A stretch of 64,000 nucleotides of DNA from a bacterium (GCA_963674695.2 CAXXGI010000003.1:704001-768000); one strand, 5' to 3'. Counted from the stretch's first letter, positions 12,807 through 61,299 are shown. The notes: generated from the letters alone by a model not told the origin. Numbers and translations: made by a program.

Positions 12807-12833
12807 TTATCGGAGCGAAACGCCAAAAGTTGC
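12807..12833 (-). promoter_or_regulatory. Sigma-28-like promoter P1 (GCAAC-N15-CCGATAA)
   Basis: Minus strand gacGCAACttttggcgtttcgctCCGATAA, 56 nt upstream of the ATG at 12750. Confidence 0.75.
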
Positions 12834-13090
12834 GTCGTTTTTCAGCATTGCGAAAAAAGAAGATATCTTTATGAAATATATGTGGATTTTAGAACTGCCA
12901 AACGGCGTTCACGCCCGTCATTTCAAAAGAGTTTCCCGCAGATTTCCATTTCACGCACACCCGCGGCCACGACGGTTTGTCACTTCCCCACCCGAACGAG
13001 ACCAAAATGACCGGTGTATCATCATAATAGGGGGACAGCATCGGTATGCGCCAAAGACCGAACCGATTGGGCGGAGGGATGAATATCATG

Positions 13091-13155
13091 CCGAAAAGTG
13101 GTCAAAGGCGACCACTACGAAGGCCGTTTGTGGTGGTAACATTTTGCCACTTCGG
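13091..13155. repeat. Family C palindrome (AAAAGTGGTCAAA..ACCACTACGAA..), degenerate copy
   Basis: Shares aaaagtggtcaaa..accactacgaa.ggcc with the copy at 62426-62526. Confidence 0.65.
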
Positions 13156-13207
13156 TGCAGTTGGAACGATATCTTGAAGCCATCGTCCGGGAGGATAAAG
13201 GATCCGT

Positions 13208-13260
13208 CGAGATTCCCCCGCCACACAACCGGCGGGCAGGCTGCCTTCACGGGAATGACA
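13208..13260. repeat. Family A half-copy with nested CCCGCC-N-GGCGGGCAGG hairpin insert
   Basis: cgagattcc[cccgccacacaaccggcgggcagg]ctgccttcacgggaatgaca; same insert at about 14604-14628. Confidence 0.75.
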
Positions 13261-13292
13261 CCCTTCTGTAATGCGAGGCTTCGGAGGTGAGA

Positions 13293-14471
<1,179 letters not shown>

Positions 14472-17949: not shown

Positions 17950-17958
17950 GGCACCTCT

Positions 17959-18349: not shown

Positions 18350-18425
18350 GGGCCGCTAGCTCAGTTGGCAGAGCAGCGCCCTTTTAAGGCGCGGGTCGAA
18401 GGTTCGAATCCTTCGCGGCTCACCA
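18350..18425 (+). tRNA. tRNA-Lys(TTT)
   Basis: Cloverleaf: GGGCCGC/GCGGCTC acceptor, GCGCC-CTTTTAA-GGCGC anticodon arm, GGTTCGAATCC T arm, encoded CCA. Confidence 0.97.
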
Positions 18426-18529: not shown

Positions 18530-18601
18530 GACCCCATCGTCTAGCGGTTAGGACACCGCCCTTTCACGGCGGCGGCACGGGTTCGAGTCCCGTTGGGGTC
18601 G
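18530..18601 (+). tRNA. tRNA-Glu(TTC)
   Basis: GACCCCA/TGGGGTC acceptor, CCGCC-CTTTCAC-GGCGG anticodon arm, GGTTCGAGTCC; CCA not encoded. Confidence 0.95.
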
Positions 18602-18602
18602 C

Positions 18603-18860: not shown

Positions 18861-18887
18861 GCAACCTTTTTGAACTCCCGCCGATAG
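18861..18887 (+). promoter_or_regulatory. Sigma-28-like promoter P2 (GCAAC-N15-CCGATAG)
   Basis: gacGCAACctttttgaactcccgCCGATAG, 22 nt upstream of the ATG at 18910. Confidence 0.75.
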
Positions 18888-18909: not shown

Positions 18910-19806
18910 ATGAACATAGCTCTCCCCTGCCTACTGACCTCGCCCGAACTCCTACTCCTGTCGGGCGCGCACACGACCTCCCTTGGTTCAGGGGAGGCAT
19001 TCGATCTCCTTCATCAGTTCAGCACCGAGCTGAACACCGAGGTCGACTCCGTCGCTCATCCCACGTCCGAAACACCGATCGTGCATATGGCCGAACAGCT
19101 GGCGATCATCAAGGCCGACGAACCGGATCATTACGCCGCTGCCCTGCAGGGTCTGCAATACGTTATTGGCTTGGAGCCATCGACGCGGCTCTTCCGTCAA
19201 ACCTGGTTTTCAGGGGAGAGCACCATCATTCGTCCGCTGACCTTTCAGGTGAGCAACCGGGAGACCGATGATCATCCCCTGGACCTGAGCGAGAAAGAGA
19301 CCTCCATGAATCTCACCCTCTCAGAGATGCCGCTCGAAATACATCGGTATATTGGAGTAGAAATCCAACGCCTGCGCCGGGCCCGAAGCTTGAACTCGAA
19401 GCAACTCGTCGAGCTGCTCGGCATGGAGGATAATAGCTCCGCCTCAGCAATGCATTTCATCGAAACGGGACAGCAGCACACAAACTGGCCGCTCCTCTTC
19501 GCCCTTCAGCGTATCTTCGGCCTCGAATCGCTCTATTTCTTCAAGCTGTGCTCCATGCTTCTCGATAAGGGCGATGTTCCCCCATTCATCAGCGAAAAGG
19601 TGCGTTTAAAAAAGGCCCATTTCTACTATCACCGTGCAGCACGCCTCAAGATGGCAGGCGAACTGACCTCGGAGCACATCCGCGAGATCATCGACGAGGC
19701 GAGCGTCTATCAGATTCATAACCAGTCGTTTGCCCTGGCCGATGCGCCGCCACAGACGATCCTGGGACCATTTTCGCTCCTCCTCAGCCTCCTGCTCAAA
19801 CGATAA
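18910..19806 (+). CDS. Orphan protein with a central XRE/Cro-like HTH domain
   Basis: IGVEIQRLRRARSLNSKQLVELLG..AMHFIETGQQHTNWPLLFALQRIFGL resembles HTH_3; SD AAGGA. Confidence 0.65.
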   Translation: MNIALPCLLTSPELLLLSGAHTTSLGSGEAFDLLHQFSTELNTEVDSVAHPTSETPIVHMAEQLAIIKADEPDHYAAALQGLQYVIGLEPSTRLFRQTWFSGESTIIRPLTFQVSNRETDDHPLDLSEKETSMNLTLSEMPLEIHRYIGVEIQRLRRARSLNSKQLVELLGMEDNSSASAMHFIETGQQHTNWPLLFALQRIFGLESLYFFKLCSMLLDKGDVPPFISEKVRLKKAHFYYHRAARLKMAGELTSEHIREIIDEASVYQIHNQSFALADAPPQTILGPFSLLLSLLLKR

Positions 19807-23226: not shown

Positions 23227-24900
23227 TCAGGAATCTCGATCGATCAAATCGAGGACGGCGGCGTCGACCGTATCGCGGAAGGTGCTGTAGTGCTCGAGAT
23301 AATCCTCGAGCCCGAAGTCATACGGAATATCGGGAGTCACGCCGATATTTTCGATGTAGTTGGTCTTCCCCCCCTGCCCGTCGGAGACGGCCTTCGATCT
23401 CCACATCAGCGATTCAGTGAGACGCACGCTGATATCGGAATGGCCAAAGGGCCCGACCCCCACGACGTTGCCACCAGCCCCCATCGTGCGCGACCCCATG
23501 AGCACCGCTCGTCCTGCATCCTGCATGACCGCGGGAAAGACGTCTGCCGCAGAGGCATCGAGTTCGTTGATGAGCAGCAGGATCGGCTTCGTGTAGAGAT
23601 ACGTCTCCCCCTTCTCATCGCGCGCAGCATCGACGGTCAGTCCACCGCTGCAGAGGGGGAACGGATCGGTGAGAGGCTTTCCGGTCATCATCGCGCGGCG
23701 AATCCCTGACACGATATCGTTGACCAGGCGTTCGTCCTCGCTCCCCGGTTCGACATGCGGCAGATACGATTCAAAGATGACGAGCCAGTTCCGGTTGGCG
23801 CGAATGCGAAAGAGCATCTTCTCGATCGGTTCGCGCGCAAAGAAAGCCGTCACCGCTTCGAGATAGCAGAGGTTCCCCCCGCCGTTGCCCGTCTGATCGA
23901 TGATCAGGGCATCGGTCTCGGCCTCGAATGCGGGAATCGTCTTCGCCAGAAACTCGACATTCGCCATCGGATTCATAGGCATCCAGGTGTGAATCCGCAG
24001 AAATCCGATCTTCCGTCCCCCGATCGTCGCGATGCCGGAAAAGAACGGCTGCGAGGAGCGCACCTCAAACCCCTCCCAGAGCGGAAAGAACGGCCTGAAA
24101 TCGCCTATCATCGCCCCCATGAGATCGCCGTCGATGGTGAGCCGACGCATACGATCGAGCGGGTTTTCCATCACCTCGCCCTCGGGGGAGAGGATCTCAC
24201 CCGCCACCGCGCGGGAGAGCCCGGCATCGGTCTGCACCGGCGCAAGCGCCCGCCCCTGCTCGATCCAGGGCATGGCCACCTTTCGCTGTGACCCGCTCTT
24301 GCGCGACTGGATCACGACCCAGGCGGTATCATGTTCCGGCATATGGGGAATCTGTGCCTGTCGACGGGAGACAATCCAGCTGGCAAACAGGCGCTCCTCG
24401 GTCGAGGCGTTCCCAAACCGCCGATACTGCGCCATCGCATCCCGAATCTCTTCTGCCGCAATGCCATCGATCGAGACGAGTCGATCGCCCACGTCGAACG
24501 GAAAATCGCTCCGGGAGAGCTCCCGGCGACTAATCCCTGAAATGACCACCTCTCCATCGAAACTATCGGTTTCAAAACCCAGCCACTTCGACTGCGACGA
24601 CGGGATCGTCATACTCATATGCACATCGGAAAACCCTGCAATGAAACCGATCATCGCCGCATAGAAATCCTCATCCGACCCCTGCGACTCGGCCGCGACG
24701 AGCAGCTCTTCCGAGAGCGCCTCAAAGGAGATGCCGAGGTGCTCCTCCTTCCAGGTGAGCGGCGCATAGCGATGCGCAATCAAACTGATGAGCGTCTGCG
24801 CATCAGCAACGCGCTCATCAACGCTCATGCGCGCGTGGGCCGCACAGACGAAGGTTACCGATACGACAACAGCCATCATCAACGTCAGTATTCGTCGCAT
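23227..24900 (-). CDS. Secreted S41-family protease, CPAF-like (PDZ-like plus tail-specific protease domains)
   Basis: YAPLTWKEEHLG, FSDVH, IGFLRIHTW, ALIIDQTGNGGG, LLINELDASAADVFP, GSRTMGAGG, YIENIGVTPD parallel the motifs of chlamydial CPAF (recalled); signal peptide present. Confidence 0.85.
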   Translation of the reverse strand: MRRILTLMMAVVVSVTFVCAAHARMSVDERVADAQTLISLIAHRYAPLTWKEEHLGISFEALSEELLVAAESQGSDEDFYAAMIGFIAGFSDVHMSMTIPSSQSKWLGFETDSFDGEVVISGISRRELSRSDFPFDVGDRLVSIDGIAAEEIRDAMAQYRRFGNASTEERLFASWIVSRRQAQIPHMPEHDTAWVVIQSRKSGSQRKVAMPWIEQGRALAPVQTDAGLSRAVAGEILSPEGEVMENPLDRMRRLTIDGDLMGAMIGDFRPFFPLWEGFEVRSSQPFFSGIATIGGRKIGFLRIHTWMPMNPMANVEFLAKTIPAFEAETDALIIDQTGNGGGNLCYLEAVTAFFAREPIEKMLFRIRANRNWLVIFESYLPHVEPGSEDERLVNDIVSGIRRAMMTGKPLTDPFPLCSGGLTVDAARDEKGETYLYTKPILLLINELDASAADVFPAVMQDAGRAVLMGSRTMGAGGNVVGVGPFGHSDISVRLTESLMWRSKAVSDGQGGKTNYIENIGVTPDIPYDFGLEDYLEHYSTFRDTVDAAVLDLIDRDS

Positions 24901-24906
24901 GGCCCC

Positions 24907-24933
24907 TTATCGGCCCCCCGCCCAAGAAGTTGC
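24907..24933 (-). promoter_or_regulatory. Sigma-28-like promoter P3 (GCAAC-N15-CCGATAA), probably leaderless
   Basis: Minus strand cgcGCAACttcttgggcggggggCCGATAAggggccATG; the ATG is 6 nt after the -10 box. Confidence 0.75.
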
Positions 24934-25240: not shown

Positions 25241-25526
25241 CCGGTTGGAAGACCTCATTTCTGAGTCCTTCTTCCGCATTGCAGGCCGGACCCTTCCCGG
25301 AGGAGTATAAAGGCGCGCCTGCGAGACGAGCGTATCCCGAAGCAATAAAATCCGATTGGCCTCACGACATTGAGAGCCGACGAAGGAGGATCCTCAATGT
25401 TGATGAGGACAACGGATTTTTTGCGAGGGGTAGCGAGCGAAGCGCGCCCTCACGACGAAGGGAAGGGTTTGGCCTGCAATGCGGAAAAAGCGGAGCGGAT
25501 GCGCAAAAATGAGGTATTCCAACCGG
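25241..25526. repeat. About 290-bp imperfect palindrome (long hairpin / MITE-like)
   Basis: Nested complementary blocks: ccggttggaa/ttccaaccgg, acctcattt/aaatgaggt, ttccgcattgcaggcc/ggcctgcaatgcggaa, acccttccc/gggaagggt, aaaatccg/cggatttt, acattgag/ctcaatgt. Confidence 0.8.
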
Positions 25527-25543
25527 CCTTGGCTTTCCCCCGC

Positions 25544-26878
25544 TTACCGGCGGAGGCGGGCAAGGGATTCGCGCCAGGGATTGACGATGCCTTCGCGGAT
25601 GTGATGAGCGGCGGTTTCGCCCGCGCGGCCGAGGATGAACTTGAAGGCGACCGGTCCGATGATCTGACCGATCGCGATGGACGCGAGCATGACCGTTCGA
25701 AAGGAGACGCCCCACGTCGGAAAGGCGATTGCGACCGCGCCGGCGATACCGACGCTGACGCCCGCCTGTCCGATGAACCCCATAAAACCCCACCGGCGAA
25801 TGAGCGGCCCCTCCCCCCCGATGCGCGCGCCCGCCCATGTGCCGAGCGCCGTTCCCGAAAGGCGCAGCACCACGAAGAGCACCGCCACCGGCCACATGCG
25901 TTCGAGCGCGGCGATGTTGAGAGCGGCACCGGCCAGGGCGAAGAAGACGATATAGACGGTCGTCGAGGTACGCTCGATGGCCGCCACCATACGCGGACCT
26001 AAGCGCGTGAAGTTTTCGACGAGAAAACCCGCCGTCAGACAGACGAGCAGGAAGTGCAGGTGCAACTGTTCCGATGCCGTCACGATGACCAGCGAGAGCA
26101 CGACCGTGAAGAGGACAAACTCTCGCCGCACAAAACGGAGATAGACCGCCACGAGTGCTGCGACCACCGCTCCGACGAGAAATGAGGCCCCCACCGAGAT
26201 GAGCACCTCTACAGCGATACCCTCCTCGACCTGTGCGCCGGAAAACCAGGCGGTGCCCAGACCGATGGCCAGCGCAAACCCCAGGAGCACCAGAACATCT
26301 TTGATCACCGTCACCCCGATGGTGATATCGGAGAGCCTCCCGTGCGCGCGCGTCTCGACGATGACGGCGATGACGGTTGCCGGCGAGTTCGCCACGGCCA
26401 TCACCCCGAAGAAGATTGCGGCGATCAGGAGTCCCTTCCCCCCGAACAGGTCGATCTGCATCCATCGCAGGGCCAGGAACATCCCCGCCGCACCGACGAC
26501 GAACGCGCCGATCGTCTGCAGGAGCGTGATCCAGACGATTGTCTTTCCACACGCGCGCAGCCGCGCGAGTCGCAACTCGCCACCGGCGGTGAAGGCGATG
26601 AGTGCCAGCGCAAGATGGTCCAGCGGCGCGAGCATCAGCACCGTCTCGTGCGTGACCAGCCCCAGCACATAGGGACCACAGATAATGCCCGCCAACAGAT
26701 AGCCGGTGATGTGCGGAAGCCCAAAGCGCGCGGCAAAAGAACCGGCGACAAAACCAGCGAGCAACAGAAACCCGAAGACAAGCATCGCGCGCGGCAGCGG
26801 ATCGATCGCAGCGCTCACACCGCCCGATTGCAGGGCGATCATGAGGACAAAGAGCAGGAAGAGGCCGAGGAATCTCAT
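25544..26878 (-). CDS. Cation:proton antiporter (CPA2-like), subunit 2
   Basis: GLPHITGYLLAGIICGPYVLG, IAFTAGGEL, NSPATVIAV, VIKD, FFALAGA, QAGVSVG; ATG overlaps the upstream stop. Confidence 0.85.
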   Translation of the reverse strand: MRFLGLFLLFVLMIALQSGGVSAAIDPLPRAMLVFGFLLLAGFVAGSFAARFGLPHITGYLLAGIICGPYVLGLVTHETVLMLAPLDHLALALIAFTAGGELRLARLRACGKTIVWITLLQTIGAFVVGAAGMFLALRWMQIDLFGGKGLLIAAIFFGVMAVANSPATVIAVIVETRAHGRLSDITIGVTVIKDVLVLLGFALAIGLGTAWFSGAQVEEGIAVEVLISVGASFLVGAVVAALVAVYLRFVRREFVLFTVVLSLVIVTASEQLHLHFLLVCLTAGFLVENFTRLGPRMVAAIERTSTTVYIVFFALAGAALNIAALERMWPVAVLFVVLRLSGTALGTWAGARIGGEGPLIRRWGFMGFIGQAGVSVGIAGAVAIAFPTWGVSFRTVMLASIAIGQIIGPVAFKFILGRAGETAAHHIREGIVNPWRESLARLRR

Positions 26879-28083
26879 GCCACCTCCCCTTCGAACGCGA
26901 GCAAACGTCGAACACAGATGGGGTTGGCGATTCCGTTGATGACGAATGCGATCAACACGATCGCCAGAACAAGATGTGCGCCGGCGTGGCCAAACCGGGT
27001 GGCAAAATCCAACGCCAGCGCCAAACCGATTCCCCCCTGCCCCGTCAAGGCCAGACCAAATGAGCAGGGATGCTGCGCCCGATGTCGGATGGAACGAAAG
27101 GCGAGCCGCGCGCCGACCATTTTGGCCAGCGTTCGCAGCAAGACGAACAGGATGGCCGCACCGATGACGACCGGCCCTTCGATGATCCACATCGATCCGG
27201 ACAGCATCAGCATGAACACATAGAGGGGTTTCTTCGCCGTCACCAGAAGACGATAGAGCTTGTCCTGCTGCGGCGAGGCGTTCGTGAGCGTAACCCCAAC
27301 GATGAGCCCGAGAAAGAGCGGGGAGACATCGAGCATCGCCGCGACGCCGGAGATGAAGACCAACACCCCCACCGCGATGGCGAGCCGTTCATCCCCTGTG
27401 AGTTTGAGCGAGAGAAAGAAATGGCTGAGCAGGCCCAGCGCAACCCCCAAGCCGATAACGATGACGATCCACATGATGCCGGGGACAAATCCCCCTTCGC
27501 GCACGCCCTCGAGGCCGAAAAAAGGAAGGGTCACGCCGTAGAGACAGATACCGACCAACGCGTCGAGGGACGTGACCGTGCGCAACAGATGTGACGTTCG
27601 GCCATGCGCCTTCAAACGCCGAATGACCGCCGTGACCGCCGTGGGTGCGGAAACACACGCCACCGATGCCAGCGCAAAGACCGCCGGCAGCGTCTTTCCC
27701 GCTGCCGCGAAGAGATCCGGAAAGAGGAGGCGCACCGCAAGCGCCGCGGGCACCATCAGGACAAAGGTGATGATCGCCTGCGAAGCCGCAATGCGATAGG
27801 TCGCCTTCGACAGGATTTTGAGCGTGCGCAGACGAAACTGCAGGCCAAAGACCATCCCCACAAAGGCCAGGACGATGGCGATCGGTTCCCCAAACTGCCG
27901 GAGCAGCTCCAGGTCAATCCAGCCCAGGGCCTGAGGCCCAAGCAACACGCCCAGCAAGAGAAACTCGATGCCATAGGGAAGACAACAGGAGAGCAGAAAC
28001 GGAAGTTGGCGAACGCGAAATGCACGGTCGGCGCCGATGTAAGCGATAGCGACCAACAGCAGGATGAAGAGAATGGAGTGCAT
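26875..28083 (-). CDS. Cation:proton antiporter (CPA2-like), subunit 1
   Basis: LLGVLLGPQALG, multiple TM helices, SLDA, QGGIGLALA; translationally coupled to both neighbours. Confidence 0.8.
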   Translation of the reverse strand: MHSILFILLLVAIAYIGADRAFRVRQLPFLLSCCLPYGIEFLLLGVLLGPQALGWIDLELLRQFGEPIAIVLAFVGMVFGLQFRLRTLKILSKATYRIAASQAIITFVLMVPAALAVRLLFPDLFAAAGKTLPAVFALASVACVSAPTAVTAVIRRLKAHGRTSHLLRTVTSLDALVGICLYGVTLPFFGLEGVREGGFVPGIMWIVIVIGLGVALGLLSHFFLSLKLTGDERLAIAVGVLVFISGVAAMLDVSPLFLGLIVGVTLTNASPQQDKLYRLLVTAKKPLYVFMLMLSGSMWIIEGPVVIGAAILFVLLRTLAKMVGARLAFRSIRHRAQHPCSFGLALTGQGGIGLALALDFATRFGHAGAHLVLAIVLIAFVINGIANPICVRRLLAFEGEVA

Positions 28084-39338: not shown

Positions 39339-40949
39339 CTACCGATATCGAGCGGACGCCCGCAGAATTCCCAAAAACCCAATGGTTATCAACAGAATAC
39401 CACCAATCGCCATTCCGCCACCGGGGATCTCAGATGCATGCAACGAGCAGGCACCGCCATCGCTGCCGTCGGCCCCATAGAGCGAGGGAAGCGCCTGGGC
39501 CTCTTCCTCCGGATCGACCGAGCCGCCGGGACTGCCCCCGCCACCCCCGGAGACGACCTCCTCCGGGCAAAGGCGCGCTTCACCGTCATAGACGTCGGGC
39601 ACCTCGTCGGCATTCATGTCGAGCCATCCGCCCTCCTGGGCGTCCGGACATCCATCCTCATCGGAATCATCATCGCGAAAATTCGGAACACCGTCGCAAT
39701 CGATGTCGGCGATCTCAGCCGGCGGATTACATCCCTTCCCGCCATGGACCAATCGCAGATCGAAGTCGGCGATGCCATCGCCGTCGAAATCTCCGAGCGC
39801 CTCACAGCCGTCGCTCAATCCATCGCCATCGGTATCGGAGATCGAGGGGTCGGCATCCTCCGGATCGACCCAGCCATTGCCGTTGATATCCTCCTCGCCG
39901 TCGGTGAGGCCGTCGCCATCCGAATCGGGATTGAGCGGATCCATCGCGTTCGGCTTGCGGTAGTTCGTCCCCGCCGCCTGCAGGCCATGGCATCCGTTGC
40001 GTTCCTCCGGCTGAATGCGTCCCATTTCGACGCCGTCACTCAACCCATCGCCATCGGTATCGCAGACGTTGCGATTCGTTCCCGCGCGGTCTTCATCGCC
40101 GTCGCTCACGCCGTCACCATCGGTATCGCCGAGCAGCGGATCGGATTCATCCGCGCCCAGTTCGTCGTCATCATTGCGATCACCCTCCTCCCCATCGATG
40201 AGGCCATCGCCATCGGAGTCGGGAAGGTTCGGGTCGGTCTCCACCCAGACGACGAGTTCGTCATCGAAGGTCTCGTCATCGCCCTCGTCGGCACGCCCGC
40301 GCTGACCGTCGAAATCGACATCCTCGAGGCCATCGATCAAGCCATCGCCGTCGCTGTCGTCATTGGTCGGATCGGTACGCGTGGTCGGATCGCTGTCGAA
40401 GAGCATCGCCATGTTCGTGAGCCGCTCGCGCTCATCGGCATCGTAAGGAATGGCATTGTCCATACGGGCGACGCTGTTCTCCGCCAGGATCGCCTCACAC
40501 CGCGCCGTCAGTTTAACGCGCGGACGGCGACGGATGCGCTTGAGCAGGCGCGTCGTTTCCGCCTTGGTGATCCCCACCTCGACGCCATCGGGAATGCAAT
40601 CGCCGTCGGAATCCGGATTCATCGGATCGAGCATCCCCAACGCCTTGAAGGAAAACTCCCCTGCTTCGAGGATCTCATCGATGCGACCGATATGCAGGCG
40701 CTCCTCTCCATCGGTGAGCCCATCCGCATCGCTGTCGGGATTTTTGGAATCGGTCTCCCCCGCTTCGACGTCCACATGACCATCGCCATCGAAGTCCTCA
40801 CGGTCATCGGTGAGGCCATCGCAATCGAAGTCGTTTTCGCAGCCGGTCGTCTGCGCCGCATAGAGCTGCACGCCGACACCCGCACTCCAGAGCAGAGATA
40901 CGAATCCCATCACCACCAACATGCCGATCATAATGCGCGACTGTCTCAT
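39339..40949 (-). CDS. Surface protein with DxDxDG (TSP3-like Ca-binding) repeats and MYXO-CTERM-like C-terminus
   Basis: Signal peptide; many DSDGDGL.DG.E repeats; C-terminus GGACSL...ILLITIGFLGILRASARYR. Confidence 0.8.
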   Translation of the reverse strand: MRQSRIMIGMLVVMGFVSLLWSAGVGVQLYAAQTTGCENDFDCDGLTDDREDFDGDGHVDVEAGETDSKNPDSDADGLTDGEERLHIGRIDEILEAGEFSFKALGMLDPMNPDSDGDCIPDGVEVGITKAETTRLLKRIRRRPRVKLTARCEAILAENSVARMDNAIPYDADERERLTNMAMLFDSDPTTRTDPTNDDSDGDGLIDGLEDVDFDGQRGRADEGDDETFDDELVVWVETDPNLPDSDGDGLIDGEEGDRNDDDELGADESDPLLGDTDGDGVSDGDEDRAGTNRNVCDTDGDGLSDGVEMGRIQPEERNGCHGLQAAGTNYRKPNAMDPLNPDSDGDGLTDGEEDINGNGWVDPEDADPSISDTDGDGLSDGCEALGDFDGDGIADFDLRLVHGGKGCNPPAEIADIDCDGVPNFRDDDSDEDGCPDAQEGGWLDMNADEVPDVYDGEARLCPEEVVSGGGGGSPGGSVDPEEEAQALPSLYGADGSDGGACSLHASEIPGGGMAIGGILLITIGFLGILRASARYR

Positions 40950-40983: not shown

Positions 40984-41010
40984 TTTTCGGCCAACGCCGC
41001 CGGAAGTTGT
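40984..41010 (-). promoter_or_regulatory. Degenerate sigma-28-like promoter P4 (ACAAC-N15-CCGAAAA)
   Basis: Minus strand cACAACttccggcggcgttggCCGAAAA, 34 nt upstream of the ATG at 40949; one mismatch in each box. Confidence 0.45.
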
Positions 41011-41070: not shown

Positions 41071-41088
41071 GCTGTGCGTTGAAAGGAC

Positions 41089-41115
41089 GCAACTTTTCAG
41101 GACATCCTCCGATAA
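41089..41115 (+). promoter_or_regulatory. Sigma-28-like promoter P5 (GCAAC-N15-CCGATAA)
   Basis: gacGCAACttttcaggacatcctCCGATAA, 35 nt upstream of the ATG at 41151. Confidence 0.75.
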
Positions 41116-41150: not shown

Positions 41151-42218
41151 ATGTCGGAAAGCCAAAACACGATCGCCATCCGCTGCGACCAGATCCGGCA
41201 ATCGGATCAACGCGAGAGCTGTGCCTATTATGTGGAGAGCTGTTTCGAACAGCGCGAACAGATCGCATCGGGCGGCGAGGAGGCACCGGACGGGTATCAA
41301 CTGCTGCAACCGGACGGACGATCGACCTCGCTGAGCAGCTTCAATCGGTGTCTCGATGCCGCGTCATTCATGCCGACCTATTACGGTCCGCTCCCGGAAT
41401 CTGTGCTCGCCACCAGAGAGATAGCGAAAGAAACACCGAAGGCGGATGATGACGTCGTCGAGGAGGAAGTCGTCGAGGAACCTGATGATGTCGAAGAAGA
41501 GGTCATCGATGAGACGGATGATACGATCGAAGAAGCGGATGATGCGATTGATGAGGATGAGGATGCAATCGACGATGACGAAGAGGATGAAGAGGAGACC
41601 GAGTATCCCCACTGCGCCTCCTTCGATGCCGGCAGCGCGGCGTTTACCCGTTGCACGGAAGTCAGCGACATCTGCATGGACGAAGAACCGCCCTATTCCC
41701 TCCCCGTCGGAGAACAGACCTTAACGGTCCACTCCGAAGAGAACTGTCTGAAGTGGGCCCAGCGTATCGCCCGAAGCACGCCGAGCAAGAAGGGCAGGAC
41801 GCGGAAGAAAAAAACGCGGAAGAGACCGGCGCACCACAAATCGACCGAGTTCGCCCTCTGGCGTTCCGACGGCAAGACGCGATTCCATGTTCCGCTCGAC
41901 GAGGTCTCCGGTACGGATGGCACACGACTGGCCCTACGGGTGGGGAAACATCAGCGCGAAACATTTCGCCTGCGCTTCTATAAGGACGGGCAGATCTATG
42001 GCCCTGAGGTCAACTTCAACTACTCGCTCGAATCGACCGGCGGCGGGCGCTACCGCCTGACCTATACGATCTCCAACCGCAACGGCGGCGGCTCGGGCAA
42101 AAAACGCAGCATCACCATATCCGCCGACAAACGCGGCATCCGCGATACGCTGGTCTTTGGCATCAAAACACAGGAAAAGAACGCAACGGTCACATCGATC
42201 CAACTCGTAAAGATGTAG
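41151..42218 (+). CDS. Orphan protein: Cys-rich module, Asp/Glu tract, second Cys-rich module, Lys/Arg tract, beta-rich C-domain
   Basis: SD AGGAG; DDDVVEEE..DDDEEDEEE; KKGRTRKKKTRKR; no Sec signal peptide. Confidence 0.75.
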   Translation: MSESQNTIAIRCDQIRQSDQRESCAYYVESCFEQREQIASGGEEAPDGYQLLQPDGRSTSLSSFNRCLDAASFMPTYYGPLPESVLATREIAKETPKADDDVVEEEVVEEPDDVEEEVIDETDDTIEEADDAIDEDEDAIDDDEEDEEETEYPHCASFDAGSAAFTRCTEVSDICMDEEPPYSLPVGEQTLTVHSEENCLKWAQRIARSTPSKKGRTRKKKTRKRPAHHKSTEFALWRSDGKTRFHVPLDEVSGTDGTRLALRVGKHQRETFRLRFYKDGQIYGPEVNFNYSLESTGGGRYRLTYTISNRNGGGSGKKRSITISADKRGIRDTLVFGIKTQEKNATVTSIQLVKM

Positions 42219-50325: not shown

Positions 50326-50329
50326 TGGG

Positions 50330-50402
50330 TGGGCCTGGCAGGATTCGAACCTGCGACCCTCTGCTTAGGAGGCAGATGCTCTATCCCCTGAGCTACAAGC
50401 CC
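50330..50402 (-). tRNA. tRNA-Arg(CCT)
   Basis: Reverse complement gives GGGCTTG..GCTCAGGGGATAGAGC A TCTGC-CTCCTAA-GCAGA..GCAGGTTCGAATCCTGC CAGGCCC A. Confidence 0.95.
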
Positions 50403-51754: not shown

Positions 51755-51802
51755 GTTCACGATTTACGGTTCACCGTTCACGGTTTACCGTTCACCGCCT
51801 CA
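51755..51802. repeat. Heptamer array (GTTYACS)x6 at the pcm stop
   Basis: gttcacgatttacggttcaccgttcacggtttaccgttcaccg. Confidence 0.75.
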
Positions 51803-52528
51803 CCCATCGTCGCGCCACCCCTTCGCACCGATGAGCTGTACAAACCGACAGGCCGTGAGCGAGCGCTGCGTCGTCTGGATCCCATGGCCGGTTCGTTGAA
51901 TCACTTCCAGGTATTGCACATCCTTGTTGCCCACGGGAATGACCAACCGCCCCTTCGGCGCGAGCTGTTCAATGAGATCTTCCGGAACCACCGGCGCACC
52001 GGCCGTAACAACGATCCCGTCGAACGGCGCATCCTCCGGCCAGCCGAGCGTCCCATCGCCGATACGAAGGTTGATGTTGGTATATCCGAGTCGATTGAGC
52101 ACCTTGCGCGCCCGATCGGAGAGGTCGGCCAGGCGCTCGATGGAGAAGACCTCTGTGACCAATCGAGACAAGACCGCCGCCTGATATCCGGAACCGGTCC
52201 CGATCTCCAGGATACGCTCGCTCCCCGTCAGCTCGAGCGCCTCGGTCTGCAGCGCCACCATCAACGGCTGTGAGATCGTCTGCCCCATACCGATGGGAAG
52301 CGGACGATCTTCATAGGCCTGGCTCTCCATCCCCTGCCCCACGAACGCGTGGCGCGGAACATCGCGCATGACCTGCAAAACGCGTTCATCCCGAACGCCA
52401 CCCCGCTCGATCTGGTCTGAGACCATGCGTCGCCGCGCCACTTCATAGCGACAGCGCAGCCGTCCCTGTTTGTTCAAATCCACCGCCGCTCGCTGCTGAC
52501 GCGGAGTTTTCTGTGTGTATCCGTGCAT
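51800..52528 (-). CDS. pcm: Protein-L-isoaspartate O-methyltransferase
   Basis: VPRHAFV, AYEDRPLPIGMGQTISQP, LEIGTGSGYQAA, GDGTLGWPEDAPFD; start downstream of the heptamer array. Confidence 0.93.
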   Translation of the reverse strand: MHGYTQKTPRQQRAAVDLNKQGRLRCRYEVARRRMVSDQIERGGVRDERVLQVMRDVPRHAFVGQGMESQAYEDRPLPIGMGQTISQPLMVALQTEALELTGSERILEIGTGSGYQAAVLSRLVTEVFSIERLADLSDRARKVLNRLGYTNINLRIGDGTLGWPEDAPFDGIVVTAGAPVVPEDLIEQLAPKGRLVIPVGNKDVQYLEVIQRTGHGIQTTQRSLTACRFVQLIGAKGWRDDG

Positions 52529-52533
52529 GGTAC

Positions 52534-52772
52534 CTCGTGACTCGTGACTCGTGACTCGTAACTCGTGACTCGTAACTCGTGACTCGTGACTCGTGACTCG
52601 TGACTCGTGACTCGTGACTCGTGACTCGTGACTCGTAACACGTGACTCGTGACTCGTAACTCGTGACTCGTAACTCGTAACTCGTGACTCGTAACTCGTG
52701 ACTCGTGACTCGTGACTCGTAACTCGTGACTCGTGACTCGTGACTCGATACGAGTAACGAGTTACGAGTGAC
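52534..52772. repeat. Long heptamer array (CTCGTRA) of about 30 units plus about 3 inverted units spanning the surE stop
   Basis: 52534-52747 continuous ctcgtga/ctcgtaa units; 52751-52772 cgagtaacgagttacgagtgac. Confidence 0.95.
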
Positions 52773-53577
52773 GCCCTTGAAACATCTTCCACGTCTTGAG
52801 TTCTTCGAGCATCTTCGCGTCGGTCATGTTCACGCGCAGGGGAGTCACCGAGATGTGGTCGGAGAAGGCAGCGTTGCAATCGGAATGGGGACGATCCTCG
52901 AACCCCGCTTCGTCCCCCCCGATCCAGTAGTAGATGCGACCCTTCGGATCGACCTTCTCGACGATGATGTCGCCGTAATCGCGTTTGCCCTGATGGGTGA
53001 CCACGGCGCCCTTGATCTGCGAAGCGGACGTGTCGGGGACATTGACGTTGAGGAGTACGCCGCGGGGAAGGCCGCTGGCCAAAATCTGCCGTGCAAGCTT
53101 TGCCGCAAAGCGCGCCGCAACGGGAAAACCAACGCCTCCGCCACCGTTACTCACCAACGAGACCGCCACAGCCGGAATGCCGATGATCGCCCCCTCCATC
53201 GCTACGGAGACCGTGCCCGAATAGTGGACGTCGTCGCCCAGGTTCGGCCCATGGTTGATGCCCGAAACAACGAGGTCCGGATGGCGATCCAGCAGCTCAT
53301 GGACGGCCAGCATCACGCAGTCGGTCGGCGTTCCATCGACGGCATAGACGTCCGTATCCATTTTTTTGACCCGCAGCGGCCGATGCAAGGTGATCGAATG
53401 ACTCGCCGCCGAACGCTGCCCGTCGGGGGCCACCACGACCACATGCCCGACACGGCGCAACGCTCGCTGCAGATGGATGATCCCGTCCGCGCGAACACCA
53501 TCATCATTGGAAACGAGGATCAGCGGACGCGGAGACTTCTTCATCCGAGCTGAATGCGATTTCGTTTTGGGGGACAC
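52762..53577 (-). CDS. surE: 5'/3'-nucleotidase SurE
   Basis: ILVSNDDG, SAASHSIT, GTPTDCV, SGINHGPNLGDDVHYSGTV; start GTG 53577 or ATG 53544. Confidence 0.95.
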   Translation of the reverse strand: MSPKTKSHSARMKKSPRPLILVSNDDGVRADGIIHLQRALRRVGHVVVVAPDGQRSAASHSITLHRPLRVKKMDTDVYAVDGTPTDCVMLAVHELLDRHPDLVVSGINHGPNLGDDVHYSGTVSVAMEGAIIGIPAVAVSLVSNGGGGVGFPVAARFAAKLARQILASGLPRGVLLNVNVPDTSASQIKGAVVTHQGKRDYGDIIVEKVDPKGRIYYWIGGDEAGFEDRPHSDCNAAFSDHISVTPLRVNMTDAKMLEELKTWKMFQGRHS

Positions 53578-56124: not shown

Positions 56125-56841
56125 ATGAACCATCGCCCCATCGCCATCATCCTGTTCTTTTTTTTCGCCCTCACACAGGGCTGTTCCGGACGCGCGCCTG
56201 ATTCAGCCGAGCAACGCGCACAGATGGTTCGCACGCAGATCACAGCTCGCGGCATCACCGACCAAAAGGTGATCGCTGCATTTCGCATGATGCCGCGCGA
56301 AGAATTCGTGCTGCCGCAATATCGCACGCATGCCTATGATGATAACGAGGTCCCGATCGGCTTCGGACAGACGCTCGACCGCCCCATTGAAAATGCCACG
56401 ATGATGCAGGCGCTCGATATCGATGCGAACGAACGCGTGCTGGAGGTGGGCACGGGCGTGGGACTTTTGGCCTCGCTTCTCGGACAGGTGGCCAAAGAGG
56501 TCTATACGATTGAAATCGATCCCAAGACCGCCGCGAAGGCACGGGAGAACATCACCCGGCTGGGGTTTTCCAATATCCGCGTCAAGACCGGCGACGGCTT
56601 TGTGGGCTGGGCTGAGCATGCGCCCTTCGACGCGATCGTCATGACCTGCAGCCCCAACCGCATTCCCGATCCGATCGCGGCGCAACTCGCCGAAGGCGGG
56701 CGTTTGATCATCCCCCTAGGAAGCGACGAACGTTTTCAGGATTTGATTCTCTTTGAAAAACAGAATGGAAAACTCATCGAACTCTCAAAACTCATTCCCG
56801 CCCAATTCGTACCGATGAAGGGAAAGATCCGTGACTCGTAA
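56125..56841 (+). CDS. Second protein-L-isoaspartate O-methyltransferase with lipoprotein-like signal
   Basis: IILFFFFALTQGC; PREEFV, PIGFGQT, LEVGTGVG, GDGFVGWAEHAPFD, FVPM. Confidence 0.85.
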   Translation: MNHRPIAIILFFFFALTQGCSGRAPDSAEQRAQMVRTQITARGITDQKVIAAFRMMPREEFVLPQYRTHAYDDNEVPIGFGQTLDRPIENATMMQALDIDANERVLEVGTGVGLLASLLGQVAKEVYTIEIDPKTAAKARENITRLGFSNIRVKTGDGFVGWAEHAPFDAIVMTCSPNRIPDPIAAQLAEGGRLIIPLGSDERFQDLILFEKQNGKLIELSKLIPAQFVPMKGKIRDS

Positions 56842-57005: not shown

Positions 57006-58082
57006 TTAGTTCTCCTGACCTTCCCGCTCTTGCTTCAACTTGTAAACAAAGACCAAAATCTCGGCCACCGCCTGATAGAGCTCCTCCGGAATCTCATCGC
57101 CGACATCCAGTTCGATGAGCGTCCAGGCCAGCGGCGGGTTCTGCACGATGGGGATGCGCATCTCCTCGGCCAGCTCGCGAATGGTATTCGCGAAGAGACG
57201 CTGCCCCTTCGCTACCACATGGGGTGCGGCCATATCGGAGTCTTCGTACTTGATCGCCACCGCCAGCTCCACGGGGTTGGTCACCACCGCATCCGCCGTC
57301 GACACCGCCTGCCGCACGTCGCCCATTGCCAGCTCCTGGTGCAACTGTCGACGAGCGCTCTTGATGAGGGGGTCCCCCTCGTCCTGCTTGTACTCGCGCT
57401 TGACCTCATCCTTGCTCATGCGCATCTGCTTCTTATATTGCCAGCGCTGCACGAAGACATCGATGATGGCGATGATGATAAAGATAATGAAGACACGGAT
57501 GAGAAACATCACCATAAGTCTGGCCGCCAGACCAGTGGATTGATCGGGCGTGGCCTGCACCGTGAGGACGATCTCTCGAATGCTGTCGCTGATGACGAAA
57601 TAGGCCATCAGAAAGATGAGAAAGAGCTTGGCGATATTCTTCAGGAGTTCGACGAACGTCGTCATCTTGAACATGTTTTTGATATTCTGAATCGCATTGA
57701 GCCGCTTCATCTGTGGCTTCATCGGCTCACCGGTAAAGATCGGACCGATCTGGATAAACCCCACGCCGATCGCGATGGCGACGATGACCAGCGCAAAGGG
57801 ACCGACGATGCGCACCCAGGTCATGAAGTTCGAGCGAGCCATGAGGGCAAGCTCCTCAAAGGAAAGGTTCCCGCGAGCGACCATATCGAAGTTGGAAACG
57901 AGCAGGCTGCGCAACTGGTCGCCAATGTAGCCGCGCATGAAGACGATGAGACCGAAGGCGGCGATGAGAATAACGATGGTGTTCATGTCGCGAGACTTCG
58001 CGATCTGACCCTTTTTGCGTGCATCCCGCAGCCGTTTTGGCGTTGCTTCTTCAGTCTTTTCCTGGCTGGATGATTCGAACAT
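57006..58082 (-). CDS. Type III export switch protein, FlhB/SctU (EscU/YscU) family
   Basis: EKTEEATPKRLRDARKKGQIAKSRD, four TMs, MSKDEVKREYKQDEGDP, VVTNPVELAVA, IPEELYQAVAEIL. Confidence 0.92.
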   Translation of the reverse strand: MFESSSQEKTEEATPKRLRDARKKGQIAKSRDMNTIVILIAAFGLIVFMRGYIGDQLRSLLVSNFDMVARGNLSFEELALMARSNFMTWVRIVGPFALVIVAIAIGVGFIQIGPIFTGEPMKPQMKRLNAIQNIKNMFKMTTFVELLKNIAKLFLIFLMAYFVISDSIREIVLTVQATPDQSTGLAARLMVMFLIRVFIIFIIIAIIDVFVQRWQYKKQMRMSKDEVKREYKQDEGDPLIKSARRQLHQELAMGDVRQAVSTADAVVTNPVELAVAIKYEDSDMAAPHVVAKGQRLFANTIRELAEEMRIPIVQNPPLAWTLIELDVGDEIPEELYQAVAEILVFVYKLKQEREGQEN

Positions 58083-58204
58083 CGCTCATTCCCCCTTAAG
58101 GGGCGACCCTAACAGAATCACGGCTCCCCCACAACCGCTTCTCGCTCGCTCCGAGCCTCCTCCGTGATTGATTCTCTCACACAATTGGGCTATCGTGGTC
58201 GTCT

Positions 58205-60298
58205 ATGGCGGACACCCCCTCCCAGCAACAGACCATCGGCCAATACTACCTCATGGAGAAGATCGCCCAGGGGGGAATGGCCGAAATCTTCAAGGGGCTC
58301 TCCTACGATGTCCATGGGTTGAAGAAGACCGTCTGCATCAAGCGCATCCTCCCGCGGCTGGCCGAAGACAAGGAATTCATCGACTCGCTCATCGACGAGG
58401 CCAAGATCGCCGTTCGCCTCGTGCACGGCAACATCGCCCAGACCTTCGACCTGGGAAAGGTGGGCGACGACTACTTCATGGTCATGGAATTCGTCGACGG
58501 CAAAAGCCTGTCGCAGATCCATAAGAAGTGTCTGGCCAAGGGCACGATGATCCCGATCCCCTTCCTGCTCTATTTCATCACGGAGTCCCTCGGCGGCCTG
58601 GACTATATCCACCGGCGCACCGATCAGGAGGGCACGCCGCTGAACATCGTCCACCGCGACATCAGTCCACAGAACATCATGGTCTCCTTTTCGGGGACCG
58701 TGAAGATCATCGATTTCGGCATTGCCAAGTCGCGCTTCAAGGCCGGCTCCACCGACTCGGGGCTGCTCAAGGGCAAGTTCGCCTACATGTCGCCCGAACA
58801 GGCCTACGGTGAACAGCTCGACCACCGCTCCGACCTCTTCTCGCTGGCCGTCATCCTGCACGAAATGCTCACGGGCAAACGCCTGTTCAAGGCCGAGGAC
58901 AACCGACAGACCATCCGCAACGTCCGGCGCACCAAGGTCGACCCGCCGTCGAGCTTTCGCGGCGACATCCCCGAAGAACTCGACCGCATCGTGCTGCACG
59001 GGCTGGCCAAGGACCGTCGGCATCGCTATGGCTTCGCTTCAGAGATGCGCGATGACCTGACGAAGTTTTTTCACCGCACCTATCCGGAGTTCCAGTCCTC
59101 CGATGCCGCAGCGTTCGTGCGAGAACTCTTTGCCGACGACATCGCCACCCAGTCCGAAGAGGATGCCGACGGAAAGACGCCCCACCTCATCATCGATCAC
59201 ACCAACTCGGCACTGGCCGACGATAGCCAGTTCGAGGCGACCGGCGTGGCCCGCGCGCCGGTCGACATGCGCGAATACATGCTCGACGAGCATACCGGCC
59301 CGCGTCGTCCGGAGCCGAGAGCGGAGCAGGCCGATGAGGAGGAGAGCCAATCGACCGCTCGCCGCCAACTCGAAGATTTCGCCCCATCGGACGAGGAAGA
59401 CGAACATTATGACGAAGCGGAAGAAGCGCTTGAGGCGGGTGATGAGGGCGAAGCGGAGGAGCAGGAACGGACGCGTCGCCGCTGGGTCCCCTGGGTCGCG
59501 GGCATCCTCGGATTTGGCATCGCCGCCACCATCGGGGCCGTGCTGCTCACCCGCGCAAAGACTGCCCCTCCTCATCCGGGACTGATATCCACCTTCGGCG
59601 AGATCATGGTCGTGACCGACCCCTCCGATGCGCGCGTCCTGCTCGACGGCGAACTCATGGGGAGCGGCTCGCCCGTCACGCTGCGCGACGTGAGGCCTGA
59701 AACCGATCACGTGCTGGCCGTCCAGAAGGAGGGCTTCACGCCGCACGAACGCAAACTCCGCCTGCGTGCCGGTGATTTCCTGAGCTTTCAGGTAACGCTC
59801 ACGCCGGCCATGCTGCCGACGGGGACCATCCTTCTCGAGACCACGCCCAAGGGGGCGACCGTCTTTCTCGACGACCGCGAGACCAGCCACCGCACCCCGG
59901 CCACGCTCGATGAGCTGAAGGCGGGAAAACGCTACCGGCTGGGCCTCTACCTGGATGGCCATCGTTTCTGGTCGAAACAGATCGAGCTCAAGGGGGGCGA
60001 AACCAAGACCTTCGACGTCCAGATGACGCCCGACTACGGTTCGGTGCGCGTCGAATCCGAGCCCACCGGGGCGCTCGTCGTGATGGGCGGCGTGCCCGTG
60101 GGACAGACGCCGCTCAAACGCGACAACCTCGAACCGGGGCGCATCTACCAGATCGAAGTCTGGCATGAGGGTTTCGAACACGCCAAGCGCGAGTTCAAGA
60201 CGATCGCCGGCCGCGAGGAGACCATCCGTATCCTTCTGGAACGCGAGGATACCCCCGCTCAGCGAGAGTTCCTCAAACGCACGAAGAAAAGACCTTGA
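58205..60298 (+). CDS. Membrane Ser/Thr protein kinase with extracytoplasmic PEGA domains
   Basis: IAQGGMAEIF, VCIKRI, VHRDISPQN, DFGIAK, YMSPEQ; acidic linker; one TM; three PEGA-like repeats (TDPSDARVLLDG, TTPKGATVFLDD, SEPTGALVVMGG). Confidence 0.92.
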   Translation: MADTPSQQQTIGQYYLMEKIAQGGMAEIFKGLSYDVHGLKKTVCIKRILPRLAEDKEFIDSLIDEAKIAVRLVHGNIAQTFDLGKVGDDYFMVMEFVDGKSLSQIHKKCLAKGTMIPIPFLLYFITESLGGLDYIHRRTDQEGTPLNIVHRDISPQNIMVSFSGTVKIIDFGIAKSRFKAGSTDSGLLKGKFAYMSPEQAYGEQLDHRSDLFSLAVILHEMLTGKRLFKAEDNRQTIRNVRRTKVDPPSSFRGDIPEELDRIVLHGLAKDRRHRYGFASEMRDDLTKFFHRTYPEFQSSDAAAFVRELFADDIATQSEEDADGKTPHLIIDHTNSALADDSQFEATGVARAPVDMREYMLDEHTGPRRPEPRAEQADEEESQSTARRQLEDFAPSDEEDEHYDEAEEALEAGDEGEAEEQERTRRRWVPWVAGILGFGIAATIGAVLLTRAKTAPPHPGLISTFGEIMVVTDPSDARVLLDGELMGSGSPVTLRDVRPETDHVLAVQKEGFTPHERKLRLRAGDFLSFQVTLTPAMLPTGTILLETTPKGATVFLDDRETSHRTPATLDELKAGKRYRLGLYLDGHRFWSKQIELKGGETKTFDVQMTPDYGSVRVESEPTGALVVMGGVPVGQTPLKRDNLEPGRIYQIEVWHEGFEHAKREFKTIAGREETIRILLEREDTPAQREFLKRTKKRP

Positions 60299-60334
60299 AC
60301 AATCGAGGCAAGCCGGTACACTCCGCGAACTCTT

Positions 60335-61249
60335 ATGACCGCCAAACGCAAAAAACCCGACAACACCGAGGACGCTTTCGAGCGGACCGTCGTGACCTCG
60401 ATCGAAAAGGTCGCCTGTCCGAAGGATGAACGCGCTTATATCCTCTTCATCGCCGGACCGCTCATCGGAAAGATGTACCTGCTCGAACGCGCGGAGACGA
60501 CCATCGGGCGTGCGGACGATGCCGATATCACCATCCGCGACCCGCGCATCTCTCGCGAACACGTCTGCATCAACGTCACGCCGGGACGAATCAGCATCAT
60601 CGATCTCGACTCGACCAACGGCACGTTCGTCAACGGGGAACGGGTCACTAAGGTAATCCTCGAAAACGGCGACAAGATCCATCTCTCGAGCGACACCCTC
60701 TTCAAGTTTGCCGTGGGCGATGAAGCCGAAGGCCTCTTCTATAAAGAGATGGAGCAGATGGCCAACTACGACGCCGTCACGGGCATTGCCAACAAGCACG
60801 TCTTCAGCCGTCGTATGAAGGAGGAGTTCAGCTTCGCCAAGCGCACGAAGTGGCCGCTTTCCTTCCTCATGATCGACATCGACTTCTTCAAGAAGGTCAA
60901 CGACACCTACGGCCACATGGCTGGCGATTACGTCCTCACCGGCGTGGCCCAGCGCATTCAAGAAGCGGTTCGCGACGAAGACATTCTGGCGCGCCTCGGC
61001 GGCGAGGAGTTCGGCGTGATCCTGCGCGGCATCGACAAACCCGGTGCGGTCACGCTTGCCGAGCGCATCTGCCAATCGATCGAGGCCAAACCCTTTCGTT
61101 TCGAAAACCAGAAAATCTCCGTCACCATCTCCATCGGCGTGGCCACCCTCGCCGGAGACAATTTCGCCAAAGCCAAGGAACTGCTCGCGCACGCCGATGA
61201 ATGCCTCTATGTCTCGAAGGAGAACGGCCGCAACCGCGTCACCGCCTGA
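60335..61249 (+). CDS. FHA-GGDEF diguanylate cyclase (DgcB-like)
   Basis: FHA motifs IGR, ISREH, DLDSTNGTFVNG; GGDEF domain DIDFFKKVNDTYGH..GD, RDED I-site, RLGGEEF. Confidence 0.92.
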   Translation: MTAKRKKPDNTEDAFERTVVTSIEKVACPKDERAYILFIAGPLIGKMYLLERAETTIGRADDADITIRDPRISREHVCINVTPGRISIIDLDSTNGTFVNGERVTKVILENGDKIHLSSDTLFKFAVGDEAEGLFYKEMEQMANYDAVTGIANKHVFSRRMKEEFSFAKRTKWPLSFLMIDIDFFKKVNDTYGHMAGDYVLTGVAQRIQEAVRDEDILARLGGEEFGVILRGIDKPGAVTLAERICQSIEAKPFRFENQKISVTISIGVATLAGDNFAKAKELLAHADECLYVSKENGRNRVTA

Positions 61250-61272
61250 CCCTGGTCAATTCTAGTCTGTGC

Positions 61273-61299
61273 GCAACTTTTTCATCATCGTGTCGATAA
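61273..61299 (+). promoter_or_regulatory. Sigma-28-like promoter P6 (GCAAC-N15-TCGATAA), probably leaderless
   Basis: tgcGCAACtttttcatcatcgtgTCGATAAttgaaccATG; the ATG is 7 nt after the -10 box and no SD is visible. Confidence 0.7.

Follow-up and report, generated by a model that had tools for sequence, protein, structure and literature searches.

Class 3 flagellar promoters of Escherichia, Salmonella and Pseudomonas have the form TAAAGTTT-N11-GCCGATAA, where TAAAGTTT, the -35 consensus of E. coli sigma-28, includes a run of T. Promoters of extracytoplasmic function (ECF) sigma factors, which lack region 3, carry a -35 box with AAC (GGAACTT) about 16–17 nt before a short, CG-containing -10 box of the CGT type; in Pseudomonas syringae and Erwinia, the ECF sigma HrpL drives type III secretion and effector genes from the hrp box, GGAACC-N15/16-CCACNNA. 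Three studies extend the picture for sigma-28. In a cryo-EM study of P. aeruginosa sigma-28, the fliC promoter presents TCTAAAG at -36 to -30 and GCCGATAA at -15 to -8, the GC of the latter being an extended -10 element contacted by the sigma factor, whose region 4.2 residues S224 and Q228 read the -35 box (PMC12784957). Of 140 mapped attack-phase promoters of Bdellovibrio bacteriovorus, 92 contain TTAAG-N16-CCGATA, and FliA was proposed as a global regulator of proteases, surface anchors and many proteins of unknown function (Karunker et al., 2013, PMC3627812). The non-flagellated Chlamydia uses sigma-28 to express hctB as well as tsp, an S41 protease gene (PMC12282069). A 64-kb stretch of bacterial DNA (GCA_963674695.2, CAXXGI010000003.1:704001-768000; hereafter the window, with positions counted from its first base) contains a dispersed bipartite motif, GCAAC-N15-YCGATAR, which shares the -10 box and the spacing of these promoters and probably represents a sigma-28-type promoter with another -35 box.

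The window contains five exact matches to GCAAC-N15-YCGATAR, against a mean of 0.05 and a maximum of 1 in 100 dinucleotide-preserving shuffles, none of which attained five sites. Tolerating one mismatch adds no further site, 0.99 being expected. A sixth, degenerate site (ACAAC...CCGAAAA) differs from the motif at two positions. Weighted scoring of the two boxes along both strands places these six sites at ranks 1–6, with scores of 19.2–22.0 (maximum possible 22.7), and the next 18 listed scores range from 16.5 to 18.7, 16 of these 18 falling within genes. A gene map of the window, based on frame-specific GC content together with Pfam, puts every one of the six in intergenic DNA and facing a gene start, at distances of 6–56 nt from the -10 box (listed by site in Table 1). 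The motif does not precede the window housekeeping genes identified by Pfam, namely rpsB, tsf, pyrH, frr, uppS, cdsA, dxr, purA, a pyrB-like gene, hslUV, an xerC-like gene, topA, dprA, purM, purN and folD. An earlier note on this DNA had listed the five sites with a chance expectation below one per window, the degenerate sixth site, and the restriction to accessory genes; all of these claims held on recounting and on the gene map.

The spacing of 14 nt between the -35 pentamer and the -10 octamer is invariant in all window sites. Around the boxes, an A-run lies about 10 nt 5' of the site in five of the six, a C precedes GCAAC in five of the six (GAC in three), and a T-run follows GCAAC; spacers and flanks are otherwise unconserved, both in the window and in the related loci described below. 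Sites 4 and 6 form a divergent pair. An isolated CCGATAA at 62600-62606(-), in the intergenic region after the site-5 target, has neither a -35 box nor a downstream gene and is probably there by chance.

The extended form common to sites 1 and 4, GACGCAACTTTT-N11-CCGATAA with 19 fixed bases, was searched on both strands of 185,579 species-representative genomes (596 Gb). It yielded 37 matches in 24 assemblies, where arithmetic with equal base frequencies predicts about 4.3; since the pattern fits two of the five exact window sites, this sample is biased and gives no regulon size. Nine assemblies have two to four matches each, accounting together for 22 loci, and the genome of the window itself is not among the 37 matches. 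By record titles, taken as given, the 24 assemblies are mostly uncultured "Deltaproteobacteria bacterium" metagenome-assembled genomes (MAGs), together with one "Myxococcales" MAG (three matches), two "Pseudomonadota" MAGs (two each), two Bdellovibrionota MAGs, four Acidobacteriota MAGs and three more titles for the remainder. The GC content of the matched loci ranges from 41 to 72%, so the recurrence is not an effect of composition.

The 137,306 bp of fetched loci also hold four further GCAAC-N15-YCGATAR sites that were not imposed by the search pattern, against about 0.07 expected by arithmetic, as well as one GCAAC...GCCGATAC site. One of the four extra sites forms a divergent pair with a seed site, like the pair in the window. 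The motif is kept in front of orthologous genes: a lipoprotein-like protein of 366/367 aa in loci L018 and L024 (53% identity, at 63 versus 48% GC), FGE-sulfatase-domain proteins in L003 and L027, and the operon shared by L002 and L011. No description of the motif was found in the literature searched, which matched its sequence strings only with primers and unrelated text. The small number of sites in a single window could by itself have suggested chance, a dispersed repeat or a remnant of a mobile element. This explanation, to which practically no probability can be given, is refuted by the shuffles, by the recurrence in 24 genomes across such a range of GC content, and by the unconserved spacers and flanks.

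The motif has the properties of a promoter: it is bipartite and asymmetric, with fixed spacing and an unconserved spacer, and it always faces a nearby start codon. The position of the start codons is informative in this respect. At 7 of 42 sites, the ATG of an open reading frame (ORF) of at least 80 aa lies 4, 6, 6, 6, 7, 7 or 8 nt past the -10 box; of the remaining start codons one is at 10 nt and one at 15 nt, followed by a cluster at 20–36 nt. Given a last A at -8, the start codons in the 4–8 nt range would coincide with about +1. The window targets of sites 3 and 5 (T3 and T5) contribute two of these near-box starts; their open frames begin at 24906 and 61304, only 3–6 nt before the ATG, and the T3 product has a clear signal peptide encoded from the ATG 6 nt past the box. 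There is thus no room for a leader or a Shine-Dalgarno sequence, and both mRNAs are probably leaderless. The same arrangement is found in 5 of the 37 related loci. If read in this way, the T3 and T5 genes support the identification of the motif as a promoter with a sigma-28-like start distance.

Any conserved intergenic motif 5' of genes could in principle also be an operator bound by an activator or a repressor, without being a promoter itself. Such a site is very improbable here, given the two asymmetric boxes with a fixed, unconserved 11-nt spacer, the single orientation relative to the gene, the match of both boxes to known sigma recognition elements, and the start codons 4–8 nt past the second box, which leave no space for a separate downstream promoter. 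The motif is very probably the promoter of an alternative sigma factor. Sigma-54, whose GG-N10-GC pattern is absent, and sigma-70 were rejected as readers of the motif on sequence grounds alone.

As for the kind of sigma factor, the -10 half is YCGATAR in all five exact window sites and agrees with the sigma-28 box GCCGATAA. The base before CCGATAA, which was left free in the genome search, is G in 22 of the 37 matches (binomial p 9e-6), and TG precedes the box in 14 of 37; the same G is present in four of the six window sites, in three of the four extra sites and in a near-match in L035. This G completes the sigma-28 octamer GCCGATAA. Counted on the quoted fliC sequence, the spacing of the flagellar promoter is TAAAG-N14-GCCGATAA, and the motif is GCAAC-N14-(G)CCGATAA, so that the distance between the boxes is identical (fliC sequence from PMC12784957). 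This comparison bears out the earlier note, according to which the motif shares its geometry and -10 box with sigma-28 promoters. The canonical flagellar form TAAA-N15-GCCGAT, also when written as TAAA-N15-[GC]CCGAT, is absent from the window, and TAAA-N15-GCCGAT is absent from the 137 kb of loci.

The genes behind the motif for the most part belong to no known family. Among the 35 first ORFs scanned behind the 37 seed sites (in L021 and L023 no downstream ORF is long enough), 21 have no Pfam family at E<=1e-4. Those with a family include M10 and Mx-type metallopeptidases, a lipase, OmpA, outer-membrane barrel proteins, FGE-sulfatase domains, ComEC and NUDIX. A crude hydropathy test, with the window proteins included, finds a signal-peptide- or lipoprotein-like N-terminus in 13 of 39 first proteins and none in the other 26. 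At the density observed, six sites in the 64-kb window and four extra ones in the 137 kb of loci, each genome would be expected to have well over a hundred promoters in the regulon.

Three of the 42 sites (in L031, L002 and L011) head type III secretion operons. They precede genes of the FlhB/FlhA families, which score slightly better as SctU/SctV, in the vicinity of an SctJ-like gene or a TPR chaperone-like gene. In L031, titled Bdellovibrionota, an SctJ-like lipoprotein (E 8.7e-23) is followed by an SctQ-like protein with a FliN domain, and the motif is located in the 3' end of the latter gene; a 108-aa ORF follows the motif, and then an FHIPEP protein scoring 499.6 bits as SctV versus 459.7 bits as FlhA. 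In L002 and L011, both titled Pyrinomonadaceae, the motif is located between divergently oriented genes. A small ORF, a TPR protein similar to the LcrH/SycD, SctY and CdsG chaperones, a second small ORF and an SctU/FlhB protein follow in one direction, and genes for an FHA protein and an FHIPEP protein lie in the other. The literature searched for type III secretion or injectisomes in Bdellovibrionota and Acidobacteriota contained nothing relevant.

Taken together, the motif is best explained as the promoter of one alternative sigma factor, most likely of the group 3 sigma-28 family, with a changed -35 preference and a large non-flagellar regulon; the probability of this reading is estimated at about 0.6. 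Several observations weigh against it. The -35 pentamer, GCAAC in five window sites and ACAAC in the sixth, is not the TAAA(G) of sigma-28, and agreement with that box is limited to the two central A and the following TTT; GCAACTTT matches TAAAGTTT at five of eight positions and the ECF-type GGAACTTT at seven of eight, and the 16 nt between AAC and CGA fit the spacing of ECF promoters. A sigma-70 family domain is encoded by none of the 61 ORFs of the window and by none of the 71 downstream and 70 other ORFs of the 37 loci (0/141), which sample only one to four sites per genome. The assignment to a sigma family is read from the promoter DNA, and the FliA-family factor with an altered region 4 that the earlier note proposed is a candidate explanation. 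The 47 sites inspected (42 + 5), which cover a small, pattern-biased part of each genome, include none in front of a flagellin, motor or chemotaxis gene. The only FlhB/SctU-family gene noted in the window (Table 1) is ambiguous, with 351.8 bits as SctU versus 345.7 bits as FlhB, both just under the cutoff. Furthermore, 12 of the 37 seed sites show overlap with ORFs of 100 aa or more when a greedy longest-ORF set is used; five of these overlaps represent a downstream gene over-extended to an upstream start codon, and that in L031 reflects the position of the site within the 3' end of the upstream secretion gene. At least one seed site, that in L030, falls within a genuine gene of the opposite strand and probably belongs to the matches expected by chance.

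The -35 box and the secretion operons suggest as an alternative an ECF-type (group 4) sigma factor that would exclusively serve a type III secretion system and the proteins it secretes, in the manner of HrpL and the hrp box. The orphan proteins would then be secreted substrates, and the sigma gene would travel between phyla with the secretion cluster. The resemblance of GCAACTTT and the upstream A-tract to ECF boxes such as GGAACTT, the AAC-N16-CG spacing and the three secretion operons all suit this explanation. The same applies to the 26 first proteins lacking an N-terminal hydrophobic segment and to the occurrence of the 19-base motif in records titled Acidobacteriota, "Deltaproteobacteria" and Bdellovibrionota, which is easier to understand if the factor moves with a gene cluster. 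Such a factor is the main rival as reader of the motif and a serious one, yet the less likely of the two. The -10 box, CGATAA conserved over 7–8 positions and preferentially preceded by G, is the eight-base box of sigma-28 and resembles neither the short CGT-type box of ECF promoters nor the hrp CCACNNA, and region 3, which reads the extended -10 element, is missing in ECF sigmas. Although ECF genes are usually autoregulated, no sigma/anti-sigma pair is found among the 71 downstream ORFs; this evidence is weak, the sample being one to four sites per genome. The size implied for the regulon also speaks against an ECF factor, the site density being far above that of a typical ECF regulon, which counts for sigma-28, and 13 of the 39 first proteins are ordinary Sec- or lipoprotein-type exported proteins.

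According to the sigma-28-type reading, a sigma factor of the FliA/SigD/WhiG family would keep the extended -10 reading (G)CCGATAA together with its spacing, and would favour GCAACTTT over TAAAGTTT as its -35 box. The transcription start would lie about 7 nt past the -10 box, giving leaderless mRNAs for some targets (T3 and T5) and Shine-Dalgarno leaders of roughly 15–50 nt for others. The factor would activate a large dispersed set of lineage-specific genes. In the window this set would comprise two Cys/acidic/basic proteins, two Ca-binding repeat surface proteins, the S41 protease and two orphans, and in related genomes it would include operons of the non-flagellar type III secretion apparatus. 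A more ambitious version of this reading, in which the promoter belongs to a sigma-28-like circuit that is coupled to an injectisome, goes back to the flagellar ancestor of type III secretion and moved between phyla as a module, appears improbable. In such a circuit a FliA-like sigma, possibly sequestered by an exported anti-sigma of the FlgM type, would activate the non-flagellar apparatus as well as its substrates upon completion of the machine; the module would have been transferred between "Deltaproteobacteria"/Bdellovibrionota-type MAGs and Acidobacteriota, and the many orphans without signal peptides, T1, T2, T4 and T5 among them, would be secreted effectors. If this were true, the motif would provide a list of effectors in uncultured, possibly predatory or host-associated bacteria.

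The sites and their targets are listed in Table 1.

Table 1. Probable promoter sites, target genes and an export-gate gene in the window.
Feature	Position	Strand	Site sequence	Description
Promoter site 1	12807..12833	-	GCAACTTTTGGCGTTTCGCTCCGATAA	A-tract and GAC upstream; start codon 56 nt past the -10 box, behind an AAGGAGG Shine-Dalgarno sequence
Target T1	11527..12750	-		407-aa ORF behind site 1; no family, no N-terminal hydrophobic segment
Second site-1 operon gene (probable)	7182..11462	-		64-nt gap after T1, same strand; 1426 aa
Promoter site 2	18861..18887	+	GCAACCTTTTTGAACTCCCGCCGATAG	ATG 22 nt past the -10 box; 259 nt past tRNA-Glu
Target T2	18910..19806	+		298-aa ORF behind site 2; no family above threshold
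Promoter site 3	24907..24933	-	GCAACTTCTTGGGCGGGGGGCCGATAA	ATG 6 nt past the -10 box
Target T3	23227..24900	-		557-aa S41 serine peptidase with signal peptide, behind site 3
Promoter site 4	41089..41115	+	GCAACTTTTCAGGACATCCTCCGATAA	ATG at 41151, 35 nt past the -10 box
Target T4	41151..42218	+		355 aa, behind site 4; no signal peptide, no Pfam domain
Promoter site 5	61273..61299	+	GCAACTTTTTCATCATCGTGTCGATAA	ATG 7 nt past the -10 box; no Shine-Dalgarno sequence
Target T5	61307..62404	+		365-aa orphan behind site 5; no family
Degenerate site 6	40984..41010	-	ACAACTTCCGGCGGCGTTGGCCGAAAA	Start codon 34 nt past the -10 box
Target T6	39339..40949	-		536-aa secreted TSP3-repeat protein behind site 6; C-terminal Cys, helix and basic tail
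FlhB/SctU-family export-gate gene	57006..58082	-		3.2 kb from site 5; no motif

The T1 product consists of a Cys-containing N-terminus, a long acidic run, a K/R-rich run and a C-terminal half rich in Gly and aromatic residues. Neither the whole protein nor residues 165-407 had a match in the protein collection, T1 itself included; the gene may not have been called in the source annotation. T1 is nevertheless regarded as a gene because of its length, its strong Shine-Dalgarno sequence and its frame bias. Window proteins adjacent to T1 do occur in the same collection. The product of the probable second gene of this operon is secreted, carries Ca-binding repeats of the TSP3 type and has partial CglD-like matches. 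Its N-terminal part shows similarity (28% identity, E 3e-11) to the second of the ORFs that follow the motif in L012, and this is the only window target with an orthologue in the 37 loci; the similarity of T1 to the first ORF of L012 is not significant (E 0.049).

T4 starts at the ATG at 41151 rather than at the TTG at 41079. Its product has a Cys-rich helical N-domain, an acidic linker, a basic run and a beta-rich C-domain, and gave 27 matches, including itself, at E<=0.001 in a library of 1.84 billion representative proteins. The family is small, with members of about 300 aa (P0003-P0016 among them) coming from metagenome assemblies only, and in its N-domain four cysteines are invariant and three nearly so. 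No solved structure matched the AlphaFold model of T4 (pLDDT 77, pTM 0.40) at E<=0.001, the Atlas contained nothing similar, and a cluster look-up yielded neither names nor taxa. T5 has itself as the sole match among 5.8 billion clustered proteins, within the length and word limits of the tool, and no match in the Atlas; a terminator scan around this gene gave matches no more frequently than in shuffles.

The earlier note had described the targets in terms that proved broadly right, two labels being stronger than the scores allow. T2, its "HTH orphan", was overstated, the match to HTH_31 being sub-threshold (E 0.011, 16.4 bits, cutoff 27). T3, its "CPAF-like" protease, does resemble CPAF, with 235.1 bits (E 1.5e-69) against the NCBIfam model NF033424, and remains just below the cutoff of 250 bits; its membership in Pfam Peptidase_S41 is clear (71.5 bits, cutoff 24).

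Both TSP3-repeat proteins, in the regions encoded at 7182-7300(-) and 39339-39450(-), end with Gly/Ala-Cys-Ser, a hydrophobic helix and a basic tail. These tails are reminiscent of a C-terminal sorting signal, and no NCBIfam sorting-signal model matched the two proteins at E<=0.01.

The nearest solved structures to the product of the export-gate gene are flagellar FlhB (200 bits) rather than SpaS (110 bits), and the protein is 32% identical to that encoded in L002. The gene stands alone, with no further apparatus genes nearby. Beside it are genes for a Ser/Thr kinase with three PEGA domains at 58205-60298(+) and an FHA-GGDEF protein at 60335-61249(+).

Other features of the window include two genes for protein-L-isoaspartate O-methyltransferase, 51800-52879(-) and 56125-56841(+), located 3 kb apart; one of the two enzymes has a 150-aa N-terminal extension with weak coiled-coil matches, and surE adjoins. 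Three tRNA genes are present: tRNA-Lys(TTT) at 18350-18425, tRNA-Glu(TTC) at 18530-18602 and tRNA-Arg(CCT) at 50328-50402(-). Similarity at the DNA level between the window and the loci is confined to the tRNA-Glu region (with L037). In the GC-rich region 25362-28083(-), a Na+/H+ exchanger ORF (25544-27190) overlaps an ORF without family (26875-28083) by 316 nt; boundaries are uncertain here, and the exchanger probably starts further downstream.

If the sigma-28-type reading is true, a single short sequence would suffice to recognise a whole co-regulated programme, most of whose genes have no known family, in many different bacteria available only as metagenomes, and hundreds of orphan genes could be grouped in one functional class, such as attack, contact or secretion. 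The reading would also provide a natural example of a sigma-28-type factor in which the -35 preference has shifted and the -10 reading has stayed fixed. The link to type III secretion would become a testable idea on the early regulation of injectisomes. The leaderless arrangement provides an estimate of the transcription start from sequence only.

Compared with known systems, the motif shares several traits with the hrp box of HrpL: both are bipartite and scattered over the genome, both mark type III secretion operons and lineage-specific genes without signal peptides, and both have AAC in the -35 box. The differences are the -10 box, CCGATAA here versus CCACNNA in the hrp box, a spacing that is one base off, and the many targets with ordinary signal peptides; moreover, no ECF gene was seen in the window and the loci.

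Class 3 flagellar promoters of Escherichia, Salmonella and Pseudomonas have the same -10 octamer, including the G that is partly conserved here, the same distance between the boxes, a T-run after the -35 pentamer and a start about 8 nt past the last A, as the start codons here would indirectly imply as well. They differ in having TAAAG where the motif has GCAAC. In contrast to the flagellar class, the regulon of the motif seems far larger and consists mostly of genes without a family, with no flagellar, motor or chemotaxis gene behind the 47 sites.

Chlamydia trachomatis uses sigma-28 without flagella, at a developmental step, and its targets are an S41 protease and a lysine-rich basic protein. 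The window echoes these targets with its S41 (CPAF-like) protease and two proteins with K/R-rich runs, a resemblance that may be coincidence. The chlamydial promoters described are two and canonical, whereas the window has six sites in 64 kb with another -35 box.

The attack-phase promoters of Bdellovibrio are likewise of the sigma-28 type and serve a large, mostly non-flagellar programme of protease, surface and uncharacterised genes; two of the motif-bearing genomes are titled Bdellovibrionota. The -35 box is different there, and the motif described here also precedes operons of non-flagellar type III secretion, a system that B. bacteriovorus is not known to have. The description of the motif in the earlier note as an undescribed system therefore goes too far, since a FliA-type, mostly non-flagellar programme has been published for B. 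bacteriovorus (PMC3627812). Most likely, the motif is a sigma-28-type promoter with a shifted -35 box that governs a large non-flagellar programme, a kind of regulation that itself has published precedents.

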